Sequence record: OL615011
Direction: 5' to 3' (one strand)
Source: Shigella phage vB_SboS_Gloob
Length of the DNA: 64,000 nucleotides
Shown: positions 1,982 to 55,543 of the stretch, in pieces
How the letters are laid out: every line of letters starts with the position of its first letter
How positions within the stretch are numbered: position 1 is the stretch's first letter
Notes under the pieces: model-generated
What the model saw: only the letters and a program-made list of their open reading frames with translations
Databases searched by the model: none
What the model was told of the DNA's origin: nothing
Translations under genes and position numbers: made by a program

Positions 1982-2023
1982 AAAATATCCCAGCTTGTCA
2001 ATGTCATAGAATTATACCGTATT

Positions 2024-2524
2024 TCATGGATTAGAATCAATCACCTTCCCACCAGATAGTGGGACCAGCTGCTGGAACTTGAACGTCACTGTCGTCACCA
2101 GCTGAGGTACAGCCGCATCCACATCCACCAGTACGTTGTCCAGAGCAGTCGGACGGGCTTCCTCCAGCACGAGAGTGAGGCCAATCGGTCGGTTGAGGTT
2201 ATCCAGTAATTCAATGGTAATGTCCTTGGAGACAGCCAAATCCTTGCCGACGTTGCTGGTGATCCATTGGTGGATCTGTAACCACGATTTCCAGTCCTCG
2301 TCTATAACGAAAGTAAATACGACGGGATCATAGGTTAAACGTTCTGAAGGGATAGAAACCAGTACGTCGCCAGGAGACGGACCATCGATGCCTTCGGAGT
2401 ACACTCCTGGTATACTGAAGTCGTGGATGTTACGGGTTAGGAGTACAAGGTCTCCGATAGTCAGACGCCACTTATCGGACGCCGCGAAATTAGGGTTTTC
2501 GTTCTTGAATTGTACGTCGGACAT
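2024..2524 (-). CDS. hypothetical protein (166 aa)
   Basis: ORF track, ATG start, non-biased composition. Confidence 0.5.
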   Translation of the reverse strand: MSDVQFKNENPNFAASDKWRLTIGDLVLLTRNIHDFSIPGVYSEGIDGPSPGDVLVSIPSERLTYDPVVFTFVIDEDWKSWLQIHQWITSNVGKDLAVSKDITIELLDNLNRPIGLTLVLEEARPTALDNVLVDVDAAVPQLVTTVTFKFQQLVPLSGGKVIDSNP

Positions 2525-2562
2525 AATAGCACCTTTTGCTGTGGAGATATTTTGTGACCCTG

Positions 2563-3207
2563 ATGCGCGGGATCAGTAGATTGTTGTTGTTGGCATGCGC
2601 GATGCTCTTGCTTACGAGCTGTCGCATCTTTGTCACGCCAATAATTTCTGTTTCCGAACTCTGGAACCCAGAAGTACGCACCGTACCTGTGACGTTGTCG
2701 GCCAGTGTTCCTACTTGTAACAAGGGTATGCTGGACATCATCGTGCAAGAGTTCCAGACCTTCCAGAAGCTCGTGCCTTTGGGTTGCTTCGAGGAGAACA
2801 CGAGCACCCTCAAGCCATACTGGAAGACCACGATTCCCCTCCTGCGTCGTGGCGATGAAGGGAAGATTCCATACCTATCAGCAAGTATTTATTACTCTCA
2901 GAACAACAGCATCATCATCACTTTTAATCCATCATTCTACGCCAAGCTGAAGCAACACATGGTTGGGCGACTGAGTGAAACGTCGGATATAATCGTGACG
3001 TTCAAAATCATGAATGACTCAGACAAGCCAGTACGAATCGCAACTCAGGGTGTGTTCGTCAACAACGACGCAGTTGGGAATGAGATGAATATCTTTGAAG
3101 TTAACCCAGGGGGAACCATCTGGATTAGACTGAGTAATGTGGGTGTGAACTCCCTACTGTTGGATGGCATCGAACCAGTGGGAGTTCTTCCGGCGCGGGA
3201 GCGCTGA
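2563..3207 (+). CDS. putative lipoprotein (214 aa from ATG 2563; track ORF begins at TTG 2536)
   Basis: N-terminus MRGISRLLLLACAMLLLTSC has a signal peptide and lipobox-like LTSC; plus-strand ORF exactly fills the gap between two minus-strand genes. Confidence 0.45.
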   Translation: MRGISRLLLLACAMLLLTSCRIFVTPIISVSELWNPEVRTVPVTLSASVPTCNKGMLDIIVQEFQTFQKLVPLGCFEENTSTLKPYWKTTIPLLRRGDEGKIPYLSASIYYSQNNSIIITFNPSFYAKLKQHMVGRLSETSDIIVTFKIMNDSDKPVRIATQGVFVNNDAVGNEMNIFEVNPGGTIWIRLSNVGVNSLLLDGIEPVGVLPARER

Positions 3208-3209
3208 GA

Positions 3210-3938
3210 TTACTTCAGGGCGCTCTTCAGATTATCAGAACCTATGTTGTTGATAACGCCACCAGCGCACAGGTCTTTAGCCCACTCAGACAGTACATTG
3301 GCGAACGAGAAGTTCAGACACTTGCTGACCATGTCTTGGATGTGGGCTAACTCTGAGGCAATACCATTGGCGATATCCTGACCGATTTGCGCCACCTGAG
3401 CAATAGCATCGTTGATATATCCGGTAACTTCGGCGGCCAGCGCCTGGATCTTTGCTAGGCCAGCGCTTACGCCCTGCGCAACTAACTCAGCCAGTTCGGC
3501 CATCTTGGCAGTAACAGTGCTGAGAGCACCCTCCATAGCCCCGATCCACTGGCGCCCAAGAGTCTGTATGACGCCGAAGGCATTGTTGATCAGATCACAG
3601 TTGGTCGGCTCGCGCTCGATTGACTTCAGGCCAGATTTGTACGACACGGAAGTCCCGATGCGGGAATACGCTTCGTTCACAGTCTGATCACCATAGTTGT
3701 TCAGCGTGGTGAGGCTGGTGTCGGCAGAGGTGAACATCGTGTTCGTTTCATTGAGTTTGGCTGTGGTTAGACCGCCTGCCGTCAGAGCGCCCTGGATTTG
3801 CGTATTTCCGGTGTTTGCCAGTGCAGCTGTAGTCGCCTTGCCGCTGGTGATTAAACCCTGAGACGTGCTGCTGAGGGACGGGAGAGGATTGTTAAATGCG
3901 TTACCCTGCTCAAGGGCGTCATAGATCTGTGCGTTCAT
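3210..3938 (-). CDS. hypothetical late protein, Ala/Gly/Thr-rich (243 aa)
   Basis: ORF track; start taken at MNAQIYD because the upstream in-frame ATG lies inside the promoter palindrome. Confidence 0.5.
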   Translation of the reverse strand: MNAQIYDALEQGNAFNNPLPSLSSTSQGLITSGKATTAALANTGNTQIQGALTAGGLTTAKLNETNTMFTSADTSLTTLNNYGDQTVNEAYSRIGTSVSYKSGLKSIEREPTNCDLINNAFGVIQTLGRQWIGAMEGALSTVTAKMAELAELVAQGVSAGLAKIQALAAEVTGYINDAIAQVAQIGQDIANGIASELAHIQDMVSKCLNFSFANVLSEWAKDLCAGGVINNIGSDNLKSALK

Positions 3939-3961
3939 AGAAAATACCCCCATGGATGATG

Positions 3962-3972
3962 GGGGTATTTAG
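3962..3972 (-). promoter_or_regulatory. late promoter motif CTAAATACCCC inside a palindrome (AAATACCCCCAT / ATGGGGGTATTT)
   Basis: Exact motif 25-30 nt upstream of gene start 3938; inverted repeat spans about 3936-3972. Confidence 0.5.
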
Positions 3973-4185
3973 GGGATCATGGCAGTTTGTAAACGAAGTT
4001 GGACCAGAACTTGCGAGCGAACTTCTTGGCATAGACCTTCCAGTCGGCGTATTCGCCCTCCTTCAGGTCATTGTAGGTCTCGAACCCTACTGCTCCCAAG
4101 AAGTACGCCGTGAAGATATAGCAGAACAGATTGACGACAAACATGATGTATCTCCGCTGTGTGAACTCAAATTATTTATGGTATG

Positions 4186-10811: not shown

Positions 10812-11117
10812 TTAACTCAGTCCCATCATTTTGCGGAACTTCATCGCTTTCTTCTTACGACGCTCAATCTTGCGACTGTAGCCCATACCCATGCGTTTCT
10901 TGGCTCGGATTGCCTTGCGGTTGCCCAGCTTGCGGGTACGGCGCTCACTGGCGACCATAACCTCACAACGAGAACCATCCGCAGACAGTTTGAAACCAGG
11001 AGCGCACTGCAGGCGACGGCGGCGTTTACCTTTTGCATTCACCTTGTCAATGACTTTCTGCTCGTCCATGCGGGAAGCCAGGAAATCAGCGAATGTTGCA
11101 ACTTCTTCGATTTCCAT
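10812..11117 (-). CDS. basic prohead core/internal protein candidate (gp68 position, 101 aa)
   Basis: Highly basic K/R-rich ORF between portal and protease. Confidence 0.4.
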   Translation of the reverse strand: MEIEEVATFADFLASRMDEQKVIDKVNAKGKRRRRLQCAPGFKLSADGSRCEVMVASERRTRKLGNRKAIRAKKRMGMGYSRKIERRKKKAMKFRKMMGLS

Positions 11118-11127
11118 GATGCTCTCC

Positions 11128-11301
11128 TTATTCGTCTTGCGCAGGAGACATGTCTTGACTCAGAGAGTTCATGACATATGCGGTGCCCTGTTGAACGAGT
11201 TCCTGGGCGCGAGCGGACAGTTCAGTTTGACATTCAGCAACAGCAGCATCGGTGTCACCAGCGATGATTGCTTTTACCAGATCGATAGCGGCCATGTTCA
11301 T
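11128..11301 (-). CDS. small prohead core protein candidate (gp67 position, about 58 aa)
   Basis: ATG at 11301 (MNMAAIDLVKAIIAG); position matches T4 gp67. Confidence 0.35.
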   Translation of the reverse strand: MNMAAIDLVKAIIAGDTDAAVAECQTELSARAQELVQQGTAYVMNSLSQDMSPAQDE

Positions 11302-11332
11302 ATCCTCTAAATGTTTTCTATACTTAGTCGAA

Positions 11333-19244: not shown

Positions 19245-19895
19245 TTATTCTCCAAAGTCGATCTTCATCTTGTCTACTGCAAGCCCCTTCTCAAGCACAT
19301 CCGCCAAAGCATTGTCGGTCTGCAGAGAAGAATCCTTGTACACGTCCGGTTCGTTCTCTTCGTCCAAGATGGACAGACGTTTGTCGATATCGTCGATCTC
19401 CGGAACGCCTGTATCGAAGTTTTCGTTGCCGTACTGGAACAACGTGCACGGCAGAGAGAACGTATACCATTTGCCAAATTGCATGAAGTCTTCATCGTTG
19501 TTTGGGTTGTTGACCTTGAAGATCTTGTTCGCCAGGGGCAGGTAGATCAGGTCACCTTCCTGAGGTTGTTGTTCAATCCCAACACCGTTGCCTATCACCT
19601 CAGCAAAGCGACGGCGCGAGATAGAGAACGTCACCTCATCCTGTAGATTAATACCCCCGAACTTCTCCCACATCTGGGTGTTGAAGCCCTGGTAATCCTG
19701 CATGTAAACTTCGATGTCGAACGCTTGGTCGAATCGATGGTTTGCATCGTTGGTAACTGGGAATTTTTCAACGATGGAACGTGGTATATACTTGACGTCT
19801 ATCCCACGCAACTGAATCATTTCTTGCACCAAATCTTCAATCAGCTTCTGTGTGCCTTGGTGATTGGTGGCGTTGAAATATTTTGAAGTGGCCAT
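19245..19895 (-). CDS. neck protein candidate (gp14 position, 216 aa)
   Basis: Gene order; late promoter motif upstream. Confidence 0.45.
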   Translation of the reverse strand: MATSKYFNATNHQGTQKLIEDLVQEMIQLRGIDVKYIPRSIVEKFPVTNDANHRFDQAFDIEVYMQDYQGFNTQMWEKFGGINLQDEVTFSISRRRFAEVIGNGVGIEQQPQEGDLIYLPLANKIFKVNNPNNDEDFMQFGKWYTFSLPCTLFQYGNENFDTGVPEIDDIDKRLSILDEENEPDVYKDSSLQTDNALADVLEKGLAVDKMKIDFGE

Positions 19896-19914: not shown

Positions 19915-19925
19915 AAGGTATTTAG
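19915..19925 (-). promoter_or_regulatory. late promoter motif CTAAATACCTT
   Basis: About 20 nt upstream of ATG 19895. Confidence 0.45.
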
Positions 19926-19954: not shown

Positions 19955-20167
19955 ATGCAAGTGGAAGACATCAAAGAAGTTCGCAGCGGTCGTCGCGTCC
20001 GAATCATCTGTGTGGACGCCAAGATTGGAGGCGGTGATTACGACATCGTCGGTCTGGTGAAGGAAGTGGATGGCACAGACTTCATTGAGTGGTGGAACTC
20101 CAACGACAAGACCGAAGACGGCCTGCTGCGTGGTAGTGGTAACGGAAACCTGGATTTGAAAATCTAA
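19955..20167 (+). CDS. small hypothetical protein on opposite strand within the neck module (70 aa)
   Basis: GAGGAA SD, ATG start, followed by a strong hairpin. Confidence 0.45.
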   Translation: MQVEDIKEVRSGRRVRIICVDAKIGGGDYDIVGLVKEVDGTDFIEWWNSNDKTEDGLLRGSGNGNLDLKI

Positions 20168-20170
20168 AAG

Positions 20171-20192
20171 AAGGGCGGGGGAACCCGCCTTT
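20171..20192. terminator. bidirectional hairpin terminator AAGGGCGGG-GGAA-CCCGCCTTT
   Basis: Perfect GC stem flanked by A-run and T-run between convergent genes. Confidence 0.65.
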
Positions 20193-20194
20193 CC

Positions 20195-20947
20195 TTATCC
20201 CATAAAGAAGTCAATCGGGTACTGCTGACCAGTACGCAGTTCTTCCTCTAAACGCTCGATCTCGCTTTCGGCTTCACTGAACATAGTATCGCCATCCAGC
20301 TCGATACCACCTGGGAGACGGATGCCTCTTGCCTTCTTGAGTACTTCAGCCCAGCGGCGCTTGACCAACGCAGTTGCATACGCCTTCAGCCACATGTCAT
20401 TCCATGCTTCTTCATTACCCTCTACCTCTGGGTCGATGTTCTGGAAACATTTGAACGCCAAAGCCTCGTCCTTTGTCAGGGCGAATTGTGGGTAGAGTTT
20501 ACGCTGGAATTTCTTGTACACGAAGGTGCGCTTCACGTTCAACACACTGGTGATGTCGGATAAACGCTGTTGCATTGAAACATAGTCGATCAAGCGGATG
20601 GAAACGAGGGCGGCCTTTGGCACCAACATGGCTTGGGCCATCTGCCATTGAGGAGTTGCCCAGTTACCGATCGATTCAATCGGAGGACCGACGATGACTT
20701 CAACCACGTCGTCGATGTCTTTGGGGAATTCGATGTAACCGTTGGCGATAGTTTCTTCAGTCACCTGGTGAACAAAGAATGCGTCCTGACTGCCATCACG
20801 ATGATACTCCCAAAACTTCTGTAGAGCGTCATCGACAGCGTCGGATACCTGTGATGGGTCGAGGTTGATCTGAATTACGGGTGCCCCCAATTTCTTGAGG
20901 ATGTAATTCATAAACCCCTTGCGGTCTCTGATAGAATTAACGGCCAT
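20195..20947 (-). CDS. neck protein, gp13-like (about 250 aa)
   Basis: ILKKLGAPVIQINLDPSQV parallels remembered T4 gp13 ILRRLGAPIINVELTPDQI. Confidence 0.6.
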   Translation of the reverse strand: MAVNSIRDRKGFMNYILKKLGAPVIQINLDPSQVSDAVDDALQKFWEYHRDGSQDAFFVHQVTEETIANGYIEFPKDIDDVVEVIVGPPIESIGNWATPQWQMAQAMLVPKAALVSIRLIDYVSMQQRLSDITSVLNVKRTFVYKKFQRKLYPQFALTKDEALAFKCFQNIDPEVEGNEEAWNDMWLKAYATALVKRRWAEVLKKARGIRLPGGIELDGDTMFSEAESEIERLEEELRTGQQYPIDFFMG

Positions 20948-21275
20948 TGACGTTCCCCTTACCACTCTGGAGGTCAGATACCGTAATCCGCAGAGTTCGC
21001 ACGTCGTCGGACAGACTGCTGCTATTGAGTTTTAATTCAGCAACGTTCTGCTTGACGTAGTTGACGTCTGTGTTTAATACAGCGATCTTCTCACTCATAT
21101 CGTTGACTTTGACAAGGATCTGGTCAACCTTGTTGGAATCCCGCTCAACCACATCAAGACGGTTTTCGAACTTACCCATCATCCAAACAACCGAGCCAAC
21201 AGAGACTATCGCCGCCGTCAGCACCCCGGTGAGGATCGCTTTCACATCGATCACAGTGTTAGTTTGAGTTGTCAT
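20937..21275 (-). CDS. membrane-anchored coiled-coil protein (112 aa from MTTQTNTV)
   Basis: N-terminal TM segment AILTGVLTAAIVSVGSVVWMM then heptad-like region; AGGAGG SD. Confidence 0.45.
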   Translation of the reverse strand: MTTQTNTVIDVKAILTGVLTAAIVSVGSVVWMMGKFENRLDVVERDSNKVDQILVKVNDMSEKIAVLNTDVNYVKQNVAELKLNSSSLSDDVRTLRITVSDLQSGKGNVNGR

Positions 21276-21507
21276 CTTGGCCTCCTGACGGGAGTTCAAT
21301 CCCGAGGTGTTCCGCCATGAGTTGTACCGTCGCTGTCAGTTGATCGATTTGCGCTGCCTGCGCTGCAATAGTTCTGTCCTTTTCTTCCTGATTTCGACGG
21401 GCGTTCAGAGCCGCTAAACCAGCAGCACTGTCTGTGCAGATGATAGCCCCAGGGCAAGAGCTACTTCTCATCATCGATGCATGCCCCTGTACTTTTACAC
21501 CACGCAT
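21259..21507 (-). CDS. hypothetical protein (82 aa)
   Basis: ORF track; GAGGAT SD. Confidence 0.4.
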   Translation of the reverse strand: MRGVKVQGHASMMRSSSCPGAIICTDSAAGLAALNARRNQEEKDRTIAAQAAQIDQLTATVQLMAEHLGIELPSGGQDDNSN

Positions 21508-48450: not shown

Positions 48451-48461
48451 CTAAATACCCC
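48451..48461 (+). promoter_or_regulatory. late promoter CTAAATACCCC with leader palindrome (ATACCCCA / TGGGGTAT)
   Basis: Exact motif about 22 nt upstream of ATG 48484. Confidence 0.5.
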
Positions 48462-55201: not shown

Positions 55202-55543
55202 ATGAAACTCAATAAGATTCTTCTGGTGTGTGCTCTGGCTTTCTCTACCACCGCATGCTCTACCCTTGTGGACGTTGCGTCTACTGTAGACCTTGACGCG
55301 CCGACGTTCACCAATGAGCAGGCCGTGTCTAAGATGGAAGATACCATCAAGGCTCATGCCGCTCTTGACAACACCACTCCTGGTCCATTACAGACCGTCT
55401 GCAACTATGACGATTCCATCCAGGAAGACGAAACCTACCACTGCACCACCCACGTGAAGCAGGCTTCCGTCGTTCTGTATGCGGATTGTACCGAAGAACA
55501 GTGCGTTGCTACGGGCTACGACAAAGTTGAGGAAGACAAATGA
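55202..55543 (+). CDS. putative lipoprotein (about 113 aa)
   Basis: MKLNKILLVCALAFSTTACS has a signal peptide and lipobox-like motif. Confidence 0.5.
   Translation: MKLNKILLVCALAFSTTACSTLVDVASTVDLDAPTFTNEQAVSKMEDTIKAHAALDNTTPGPLQTVCNYDDSIQEDETYHCTTHVKQASVVLYADCTEEQCVATGYDKVEEDK

Follow-up and report, generated by a model that had tools for sequence, protein, structure and literature searches.

An opposite-strand DUF7424 lipoprotein gene as a core gene of the Ackermannviridae and a tentative candidate for an envelope exclusion or protection factor

Introduction

The strictly lytic T4-like lineage has conserved the exclusion functions Sp (spackle) and Imm, both of which work at the envelope to fend off the tails or the DNA of incoming phages. 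The lipoproteins known to be cotranscribed with a prophage repressor are superinfection exclusion or conversion genes, and morons of the tail module represent the other classic site for exclusion genes. In phage T5, the llp gene forms a separate transcription unit that adjoins the tail gene pb5. Llp and Rtp45 are periplasmic outer membrane lipoproteins that bind the receptor from the inside, block entry, and protect the progeny from debris (PMC12685063, PMC9586334). The ltp gene of the Streptococcus thermophilus phage TP-J34 is part of the lysogeny module, where it adjoins int and precedes a cI-like gene, and transcripts of it are made in the prophage state (PMC3952083). Phage lipoprotein genes are rare and are the usual first clue in searches for spanins (PMC6139136). 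Here, we analyze a lipoprotein gene of the Pfam family DUF7424 that is encoded on the plus strand, within a block of minus-strand genes, near the beginning of a 64,000-nucleotide stretch of DNA (referred to as the window) of Shigella phage vB_SboS_Gloob (sequence record OL615011).

The product of this gene resembles these systems in several respects. Like Llp, Rtp45, and the Cor-type proteins, it would be a phage lipoprotein of the inner leaflet of the outer membrane that faces the periplasm and is made in the infected cell. However, Llp and Rtp45 have a mass of only ~6 to 7 kDa, whereas the DUF7424 protein has 21.8 kDa and two subdomains, and no relationship in sequence or fold to the Llp, Rtp45, or Cor-type proteins was detected. 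Furthermore, the targets of Llp and Rtp45 are the phages' own protein receptors (FhuA and LptDE), whereas the Ackermannviridae use variable tailspikes on polysaccharides, with which the lipoprotein does not covary. The arrangement of repressor, lipoprotein, and integrase in remote DUF7424 members is reminiscent of ltp, but Ltp is a 142-aa protein of a Gram-positive host that is tethered to the cytoplasmic membrane; no sequence relationship to it was detected, and the only Pfam match was to DUF7424. Sp and Imm of T4 differ in that neither is a lipoprotein, and no homology to them was detected.

Results

The plus-strand open reading frame encodes a predicted outer membrane lipoprotein

The open reading frame (ORF) matched DUF7424 (PF24199) with 202.6 bits (cutoff, 27; E value, 7e-60) over residues 23 to 213, corresponding to model positions 2 to 196 of 196, and phrog_3832 at 3e-101. 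On account of these two matches, we consider it a real gene and not a chance ORF. Its N terminus, MTLMRGISRLLLLACAMLLLTS-C23, conforms to the PROSITE rule PS51257, which demands a positively charged n-region, an uncharged hydrophobic h-region, and the pattern [LVI][ASTVI][GAS]C with the Cys ~15 to 35 residues from the start. The preliminary description of this DNA, made from the sequence alone, had noted an ORF with a signal peptide and a lipobox that fills the space between two minus-strand genes. Both observations stand; only 29 nt separate the ORF from the start of gp3 (position 2524) and 2 nt separate it from the stop of the DUF7217 gene (position 3210). In other records, the gene is labeled "lipoprotein," "putative lipoprotein," or "putative conserved lipoprotein"; Pfam and part of the GenBank annotations already contain the lipoprotein call.

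The same lipobox rule was passed by 58 of 70 Ackermann-like homologues; the others are mostly N-terminally truncated calls, along with a few in which the n-region is short or the lipobox is narrowly missed (N at -2). The residue following the Cys (+2) is Arg in each of the 58 homologues that could be scored, and none has Asp; over the Ackermann-like homologues as a whole, this position holds Arg or Lys. According to the +2 rule of Escherichia coli, the residue after the lipidated Cys governs sorting to the outer or the inner membrane. Based on this rule and the Arg at +2, we predict that the Lol system sorts the DUF7424 lipoprotein to the outer membrane.

The reading frame ends with a TGA at position 3207 and has three possible starts, namely, TTG 2536, GTG 2554, and ATG 2563. 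The preliminary description placed the start at ATG 2563, which is in frame but lies 16 nt from the Shine-Dalgarno sequence (Table 1). GTG 2554 is the better start because its spacing to the Shine-Dalgarno sequence is 7 nt, because Kuttervirus, Taipeivirus, Miltonvirus, and Nezavisimistyvirus share this GTG together with the Shine-Dalgarno sequence, and because the record of phage Ag3 annotates the equivalent start. The mature protein is identical for both starts. In the Erwinia phage phiEa2809 (~2446..3110), the lipoprotein gene is intact and unannotated, and in Serratia phage 3M (~2444..3106), it is intact and annotated only as a truncated 102-aa ORF. Several further database homologues are N-terminally truncated gene calls that lack the signal peptide.

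The mature protein has 195 aa, a mass of 21.8 kDa, a pI of 6.8, and 6.7% Pro. Across 20 sequences down to 25% identity, C23, C55, C78, W90, N154, G175, S194, L201, G205, E207, and P213 are invariant; the conservation of the Cys pair suggests that Cys55 and Cys78 probably form a disulfide in the periplasm. The best-conserved stretches are residues 21 to 30, 91 to 120, 161 to 170, and 191 to 210, whereas the segment between Cys55 and Cys78 is variable. The predicted structure (predicted local distance difference test [pLDDT], 74; predicted template modeling score [pTM], 0.69) contains many strands and helices, with an alpha/beta part followed by a beta-sandwich; the C-terminal tail, GIEPVGVLPA, is conserved and modeled with low confidence. 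No fold match was found for this structure, which hence represents an orphan fold, and a sequence profile search of the Protein Data Bank (PDB) as well as searches of NCBIfam and PADLOC returned zero matches.

Between Agtrevirus and Kuttervirus, the identity is 62% for the lipoprotein, 81% for gp3, and 92% for a second predicted lipoprotein (55202..55543, plus strand); the DUF7424 lipoprotein thus evolves faster than the products of the neighboring genes. The gene for this second lipoprotein is located directly 3' of the DNA polymerase gene and encodes 113 aa with the N terminus MKLNKILLVCALAFSTTA-C and four more Cys residues. It was found in 277 phage records, where it is mostly termed "hypothetical" and in a few cases "putative lipoprotein."

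The lipoprotein gene is present at the same site throughout the family

By tblastn, we found the lipoprotein in 293 phage records, each with at least 80% query coverage. According to the host genus, these include phages of Salmonella (164 records), Klebsiella (44), Escherichia (29), Dickeya (19), Serratia (10), Shigella (5), Erwinia (4), Enterobacter (3), and Aeromonas (3). With enterobacterial or Aeromonas hosts, the number of records per host genus is identical for the lipoprotein and the core gene gp3, and every enterobacterial Ackermannviridae record carries the lipoprotein gene. Vibrio phages are the only exception (9 records with the lipoprotein versus 69 with gp3), with identities of ~25%, at which tblastn loses sensitivity. 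The gene order is equally conserved: the genes for UvsW, the exonuclease, UvsY, and gp3 are on the same strand, and the lipoprotein gene is divergent from gp3. This order was seen in the phages Ag3, CAU_YEP3, JA15, Marshall, 0507-KN2-1, Serratia 3M, phiEa2809, Vibrio K476, and Aeromonas TSW001, covering eight genera or lineages (Agtrevirus, Limestonevirus, Kuttervirus, Taipeivirus, Miltonvirus, Nezavisimistyvirus, and those of Vibrio K476 and Aeromonas TSW001). In a 128-kb metagenomic phage, genes for a helicase, an exonuclease, and gp3 adjoin the lipoprotein gene. Both site and orientation are kept even in the Vibrio and Aeromonas relatives at 25% identity. The preliminary description had proposed to check for the gene in related genomes; in all lineages examined, it is conserved at the same site, and its distribution is not patchy.

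The base composition of the lipoprotein gene (GC content, 0.495; GC content at third codon positions [GC3], 0.615) and that of a 70-aa gene, also on the plus strand (GC, 0.516; GC3, 0.620), match those of the neighboring genes (GC, 0.47 to 0.55; GC3, 0.56 to 0.63), and neither of the two genes thus has a deviating composition. As judged by these comparisons, the lipoprotein gene is an old, vertically inherited core gene of the Ackermannviridae. The DUF7424 family as such may have originated as a moron in temperate phages.

Remote DUF7424 members are found beside repressor genes and in tail modules

A word-indexed search retrieved only 70 clusters, all on phage-sized contigs of ~150 kb; an exhaustive search with a hidden Markov model returned 335 cluster representatives of DUF7424 lipoproteins at an E value of ≤1e-3. 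All 30 representatives sampled had a length of 190 to 370 aa and matched DUF7424, and 29 of them had the aligned lipobox Cys and the motifs N-D-T and L-S-D-V. DUF7424 was also matched by 31 of 31 diverse relatives, and among the representatives listed, 127 of 148 passed the strict lipobox rule. A search of viral contigs for a DUF7424 subgroup with Asp at +2 found none, with one alignment being too diverse to search with. Some remote members carry C-terminal extensions, namely, ankyrin repeats in a 370-aa protein (P0143) and a Cys-rich tail in a 332-aa protein (P0129).

The remote relatives are located in bacterial chromosomes and on contigs of temperate phages. In a P2/186-like prophage of Atlantibacter, a CII-like gene is encoded on one strand and the genes for a 186-type CI repressor, the lipoprotein, and an integrase are on the other. 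In a Halomonas prophage, the lipoprotein gene lies 62 nt behind the gene for an S24/HTH repressor and has phage genes downstream. Aligned with the Ackermann profile, the prophage proteins reached hhalign probabilities of 96.6 to 98.1% over 194 to 198 columns. A prophage copy that is cotranscribed with the repressor would be made in the lysogen.

We then inspected the context of the gene in a sample of 28 loci from IMG/VR, mostly on contigs of 30 to 65 kb, with a total of 55 flanking genes. (i) In 7 of the 28 loci, the gene directly ahead, on the strand of the lipoprotein gene and 4 to 90 nt away, encodes a CI-type repressor, and in 3 of these 7 loci, an integrase gene follows immediately downstream. 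(ii) Tape-measure, DNA-circulation, or baseplate-hub genes are neighbors in at least 5 of the 28 loci. In the temperate tail-module copies (contigs L038, L039, L041, L043, and L046), the DUF7424 gene is on the strand of the tail module; the copy of the Ackermannviridae is tied to the tail gene gp3. (iii) Not one of the 55 flanking genes in these loci is a lysis gene (holin, endolysin, or spanin). Elsewhere, the DUF7424 gene adjoins a YafQ toxin gene in Methylophaga and is found near genes for an AAA ATPase and a PD-(D/E)XK nuclease in a genome of the Latescibacterota. The gene in the window belongs to a lytic phage and has no repressor or integrase gene nearby; the position in a lysogeny module is that of its remote homologues (7 of 28 viral loci and two bacterial loci), which is informative as functional context only. 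What appears to be new in this study is the link, drawn from sequence profiles, of a core gene of lytic phages to hundreds of DUF7424 lipoproteins, including prophage copies next to the repressor.

TABLE 1 Positions of the features discussed, given in window coordinates
Feature	Coordinates	Strand	Remarks
DUF7424 prolipoprotein gene	2554..3207	+	217 aa from GTG 2554; 214 aa from ATG 2563
Signal peptide and lipobox	2554..2622	+	n-region with Arg5 and Arg9; h-region LLLLACAMLLL; lipobox L-T-S-C; predicted lipidated Cys23, codon 2620-2622
Shine-Dalgarno sequence GGAG	2543..2546	+	7 nt ahead of GTG 2554
TAAATA, candidate late-type promoter	2314..2319	+	Inside gp3, 240 nt before the lipoprotein start; atypical G at -1
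aaTAAATAct, candidate late promoter for gp3	2886..2891	-	Within the lipoprotein reading frame, at conserved Ile-Tyr-Tyr codons
Weak stem-loop over two convergent stops	3198..3225		stem_loop in the Ag3 record; z -0.9 and -0.8; no U tract
Late-promoter-like motif cTAAATAccccc	3966..3971	-	Upstream of the DUF7217 gene
gp3 gene, tail completion/sheath stabilizer	2024..2524	-	Divergent neighbor of the lipoprotein gene
DUF7217 gene, virion structural protein	3210..3953	-	Convergent neighbor of the lipoprotein gene; ORF129 in the LIMEstone1 virion
gp14-like neck/head-closure gene	19245..19895	-	Own cTAAATAcc motif at 19919-19924
70-aa gene (phrog_4466)	19955..20167	+	Acidic, 7.8 kDa, no signal peptide, predicted small beta-barrel
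Two-way intrinsic terminator hairpin GGCGGG-GGAA-CCCGCC	20170..20193		10 bp, GC rich; between the convergent 70-aa and gp13-like genes
gp13-like neck gene	20195..20965	-	Neighbor of the 70-aa gene

Transcription signals around the lipoprotein gene

At least 10 structural genes are preceded, at a distance of 15 to 40 nt, by the motif cTAAATAcc(cc), in which we see the probable late promoter of the phage group. The sites include those at positions 785, 3971, 10123, 15647, 19924, 31283, 33502, 36564, and 40450 on the minus strand and at 48452 and 48940 on the plus strand; in many cases, a ccccat...atgggg hairpin comes next, with the ribosome-binding region as part of it. We liken the motif to the T4-type late promoter, which is to be expected because homologues of gp55, gp33, and gp45 have been reported for Ag3 (PMC3121705).

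Because it is encoded on the opposite strand, the lipoprotein gene is a transcription unit apart from the surrounding late operons. No sigma-70-like promoter was predicted upstream of it. The GTA-TTT codons that contain the TAAATA candidate inside gp3 (Table 1) were kept in 6 of 7 enterobacterial lineages in a synonymous-site check, which is suggestive only. Ea2809 lacks TAAATA at the equivalent position and has aTAAATAccc at another position upstream, and in Vibrio K476, cCTAAATAcc is found 77 nt upstream of the lipoprotein gene. The sequence CATAAT, which overlaps the start codon of gp3, was considered as a -10 box and rejected, since its distance from the -35 region does not fit and the sequence lacks conservation.

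Between the convergent DUF7217 and lipoprotein genes, no convincing terminator was found, and late transcripts starting at 3971 therefore probably cross the lipoprotein gene in antisense and continue into gp3. The 29-nt gap upstream of gp3 contains no late motif. The aaTAAATAct sequence inside the lipoprotein ORF, which may be an embedded late promoter for gp3, is present at the equivalent site in Kuttervirus, Taipeivirus, Limestonevirus, and Ea2809, whereas Serratia 3M lacks it there and has caaTAAATAct ~130 nt nearer to gp3. A literature search for transcriptomes of Ackermannviridae found nothing relevant.

The 70-aa gene and other features of the window

The window is Agtrevirus genome sequence (Ackermannviridae): bases 2000 to 4000 share 98.6% identity with Salmonella phage SKML-39 and Shigella phage Ag3, which belong to this genus, and 88 to 80% with other Aglimvirinae. 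The minus-strand block extends from base 1 to ~26,600 and includes the genes for UvsW, the exonuclease, UvsY, and gp3 as well as head, tail, terminase, and neck genes. Only two real plus-strand genes are found inside this block, namely, the lipoprotein gene and the 70-aa gene. The plus-strand ORF at 10891..11310 (139 aa), although the longest at its site, is almost certainly spurious, since at this site Ag3 has two annotated genes on the minus strand, one scaffold gp68-like and the other of 55 aa, with which the ORF overlaps.

The preliminary description had also pointed to a 70-aa plus-strand ORF followed by a two-way terminator amid the neck genes, and the data bear this out. The gene has the Shine-Dalgarno sequence GAGGA 7 nt upstream, matches its phrog family at 6e-35, and occurs in 284 phage records; in both Det7 and Ag3, its flanking genes are the gp14-like and the gp13-like one. 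The hairpin has a folding energy of -19.6 kcal/mol (z -3.3) on the plus strand and -16.8 kcal/mol (z -1.7) on the minus strand and is T rich on both sides; in the Ag3 record, it is annotated as two rho-independent terminators, one per strand. Promoter matches for the gene are no better than chance. This ORF, too, is thus a real gene that is conserved in the family and has a terminator of its own. Its product would be a small acidic cytoplasmic non-virion beta-barrel protein, as suggested by fold prediction and by the gene order of the LIMEstone1 proteome, and it shows a weak CarD-like resemblance. Among the 39 proteins of the LIMEstone1 virion proteome, ORF127 (gp3) and ORF129 (25 kDa, DUF7217) are present, whereas ORF128 and ORF152/153, which by gene order correspond to the positions of the two plus-strand genes, are absent. 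The operon gp214 to gp217 of phage Sajous1 ("tail completion, molybdate-binding, helicase, ferritin"; mass spectrometry hits in Harris et al. 2024) was considered as a lipoprotein locus and dropped because gp214 to gp217 in GenBank are other plus-strand genes (795, 189, 79, and 117 aa) at a different locus.

Discussion

Judging from the genomic context of its remote homologues, we tentatively propose that the DUF7424 lipoprotein is an envelope-level superinfection exclusion or protection factor, to which we assign a probability of roughly 0.4. We favor this role because the homologues occupy the positions of known exclusion genes, that is, the repressor operon and the tail module; the fast evolution of the protein relative to its neighbors also speaks for it. 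The protein would be anchored in the outer membrane with its 21.8-kDa body facing the periplasm, would be active in the envelope of cells in which the phage already resides, and would block a postadsorption step of incoming phages. Its possible target is a conserved outer membrane component, on which it would act from the periplasmic side; alternatively, it may act on the incoming tail tip or the DNA-entry machinery. The progeny would possibly be spared wasted ejection on infected cells and debris. The preliminary description had suggested either superinfection exclusion or receptor masking. The former receives real, if indirect, support from the prophage contexts of the homologues. As to the latter, the retention of the protein across differing tailspikes and hosts, from Vibrio to Salmonella phages, points to a conserved envelope component as the likely target and makes it less likely that the primary polysaccharide receptor is masked.

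A number of points weigh against this proposal. (i) The good conservation of the protein despite widely differing tailspikes and primary receptors speaks against simple masking of the primary receptor. (ii) The exclusion genes known from lytic phages belong to the early genes, and the only promoter candidate upstream of the lipoprotein gene, for which no sigma-70-like promoter was predicted, is the weak late-type TAAATA with a G at -1. (iii) That all members of a strictly lytic family, one counted among the spanin-less phages, have retained the gene would likewise be compatible with an essential role in lysis. (iv) The evidence from context comes from homologues at only 20 to 25% identity, and their function may have diverged. 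(v) No mention of DUF7424 was found in the literature.

A different accessory role in the envelope, such as the inhibition of a periplasmic or outer membrane defense or protease of the host, control of vesiculation, or lysogenic surface conversion, seems rather doubtful to us. The evidence for localization is the same as for exclusion, an orphan fold excludes no function, and the contexts in lysogeny modules and islands, such as those with the YafQ gene in Methylophaga and the AAA ATPase and PD-(D/E)XK nuclease genes in the Latescibacterota, would suit conversion genes. However, there is no positive evidence for any particular one of these functions, with neither PADLOC nor NCBIfam giving a match, and the repeated association with tail modules is more in line with functions in entry.

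The main competing explanation, which we consider unlikely, is that the lipoprotein is the outer membrane part of a noncanonical lysis system, either as a distant substitute for the o-spanin or as a new disruption factor, perhaps with an unlinked membrane partner. This idea is suggested by the report of Kongari et al. 2018, in which all Ackermannviridae analyzed (Vi01, CBA120, PhaxI, ECML-4, SFP10, Maynard, SJ2, SJ3, phiSboM-AG3, and RC-2014) were spanin-less and in which 31 spanin-less genomes carry a lipoprotein gene without a linked i-spanin (PMC6139136). In addition, all family members carry the lipoprotein gene, which is what one would expect of a gene essential for lysis, its outer membrane sorting signal is conserved, it is preceded by a late-type TAAATA with well-matched versions in Ea2809 and K476, and the conserved GIEPVGVLPA tail could be a partner-binding motif. 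Consistent with a missing spanin, the region upstream of the vWA gene of phage SP-9-14, for which the table of another paper lists spanins, yielded three candidate proteins, none of which has a transmembrane domain or a lipobox.

The comparison with o-spanins such as lambda Rz1 and T4 PseT.2 is less favorable. These are likewise phage outer membrane lipoproteins with a Lol-sorted lipobox, a signal that is also predicted here, but they are short and largely unstructured, and their genes lie within, overlapping, or beside the i-spanin gene, in or near lysis cassettes. In contrast, the mature DUF7424 protein, with its 195 aa, 6.7% Pro, and conserved Cys pair, is predicted to be globular and folded, and its gene is flanked by those of gp3 and a virion protein instead of an i-spanin, holin, or endolysin gene. 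The nearest i-spanin-like ORF (20937..21299) is ~18 kb away. Temperate homologues, moreover, are part of the repressor operon, a setting in which a factor that promotes lysis would do harm, and lysis genes are absent from the flanks of the 28 viral loci. The i-spanin-like ORF (120 aa, minus strand), which overlaps the start of the gp13-like gene, has an N-terminal transmembrane helix followed by a coiled coil, which is an i-spanin-like architecture. It is quite improbable that the large folded lipoprotein, alone or with an unlinked type II coiled-coil protein such as the product of this ORF, is the missing disruption factor of the "spanin-less" Ackermannviridae; if it were, the final stage of lysis in Gram-negative hosts would have gained a new architecture.

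Although the gene adjoins gp3 and the DUF7217 gene in all Ackermann-like phages and some temperate homologues are located beside tape-measure or hub genes, a role as a virion or assembly component tied to these tail genes is very improbable, since an exported, lipid-anchored periplasmic protein cannot join tail assembly in the cytoplasm and since, by gene order, it is absent from the LIMEstone1 virion proteome, in which both neighbors are present. Similarly, we see hardly any room for the view of the preliminary description that both plus-strand genes are recent moron-like insertions into the late operon: the opposite strand of both genes, the terminator of the 70-aa gene, and the moron-like contexts of remote DUF7424 members in temperate phages would suit it, but the genes occupy the same fixed sites in essentially all family members (293 and 284 records), including relatives at 25% identity, and their composition matches that of their neighbors.

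Members of the Ackermannviridae such as Kuttervirus, Agtrevirus, Limestonevirus, and Taipeivirus are widely used and have been proposed for the biocontrol and therapy of Salmonella, E. coli O157, Shigella, Klebsiella, and Dickeya. An outer membrane lipoprotein encoded by a core gene could govern exclusion between the members of a phage cocktail and may affect the loss of progeny on debris, and it is also a candidate for the unexplained outer membrane lysis step in this family. The link to repressor-adjacent genes turns an anonymous domain of unknown function into a family with a testable function.

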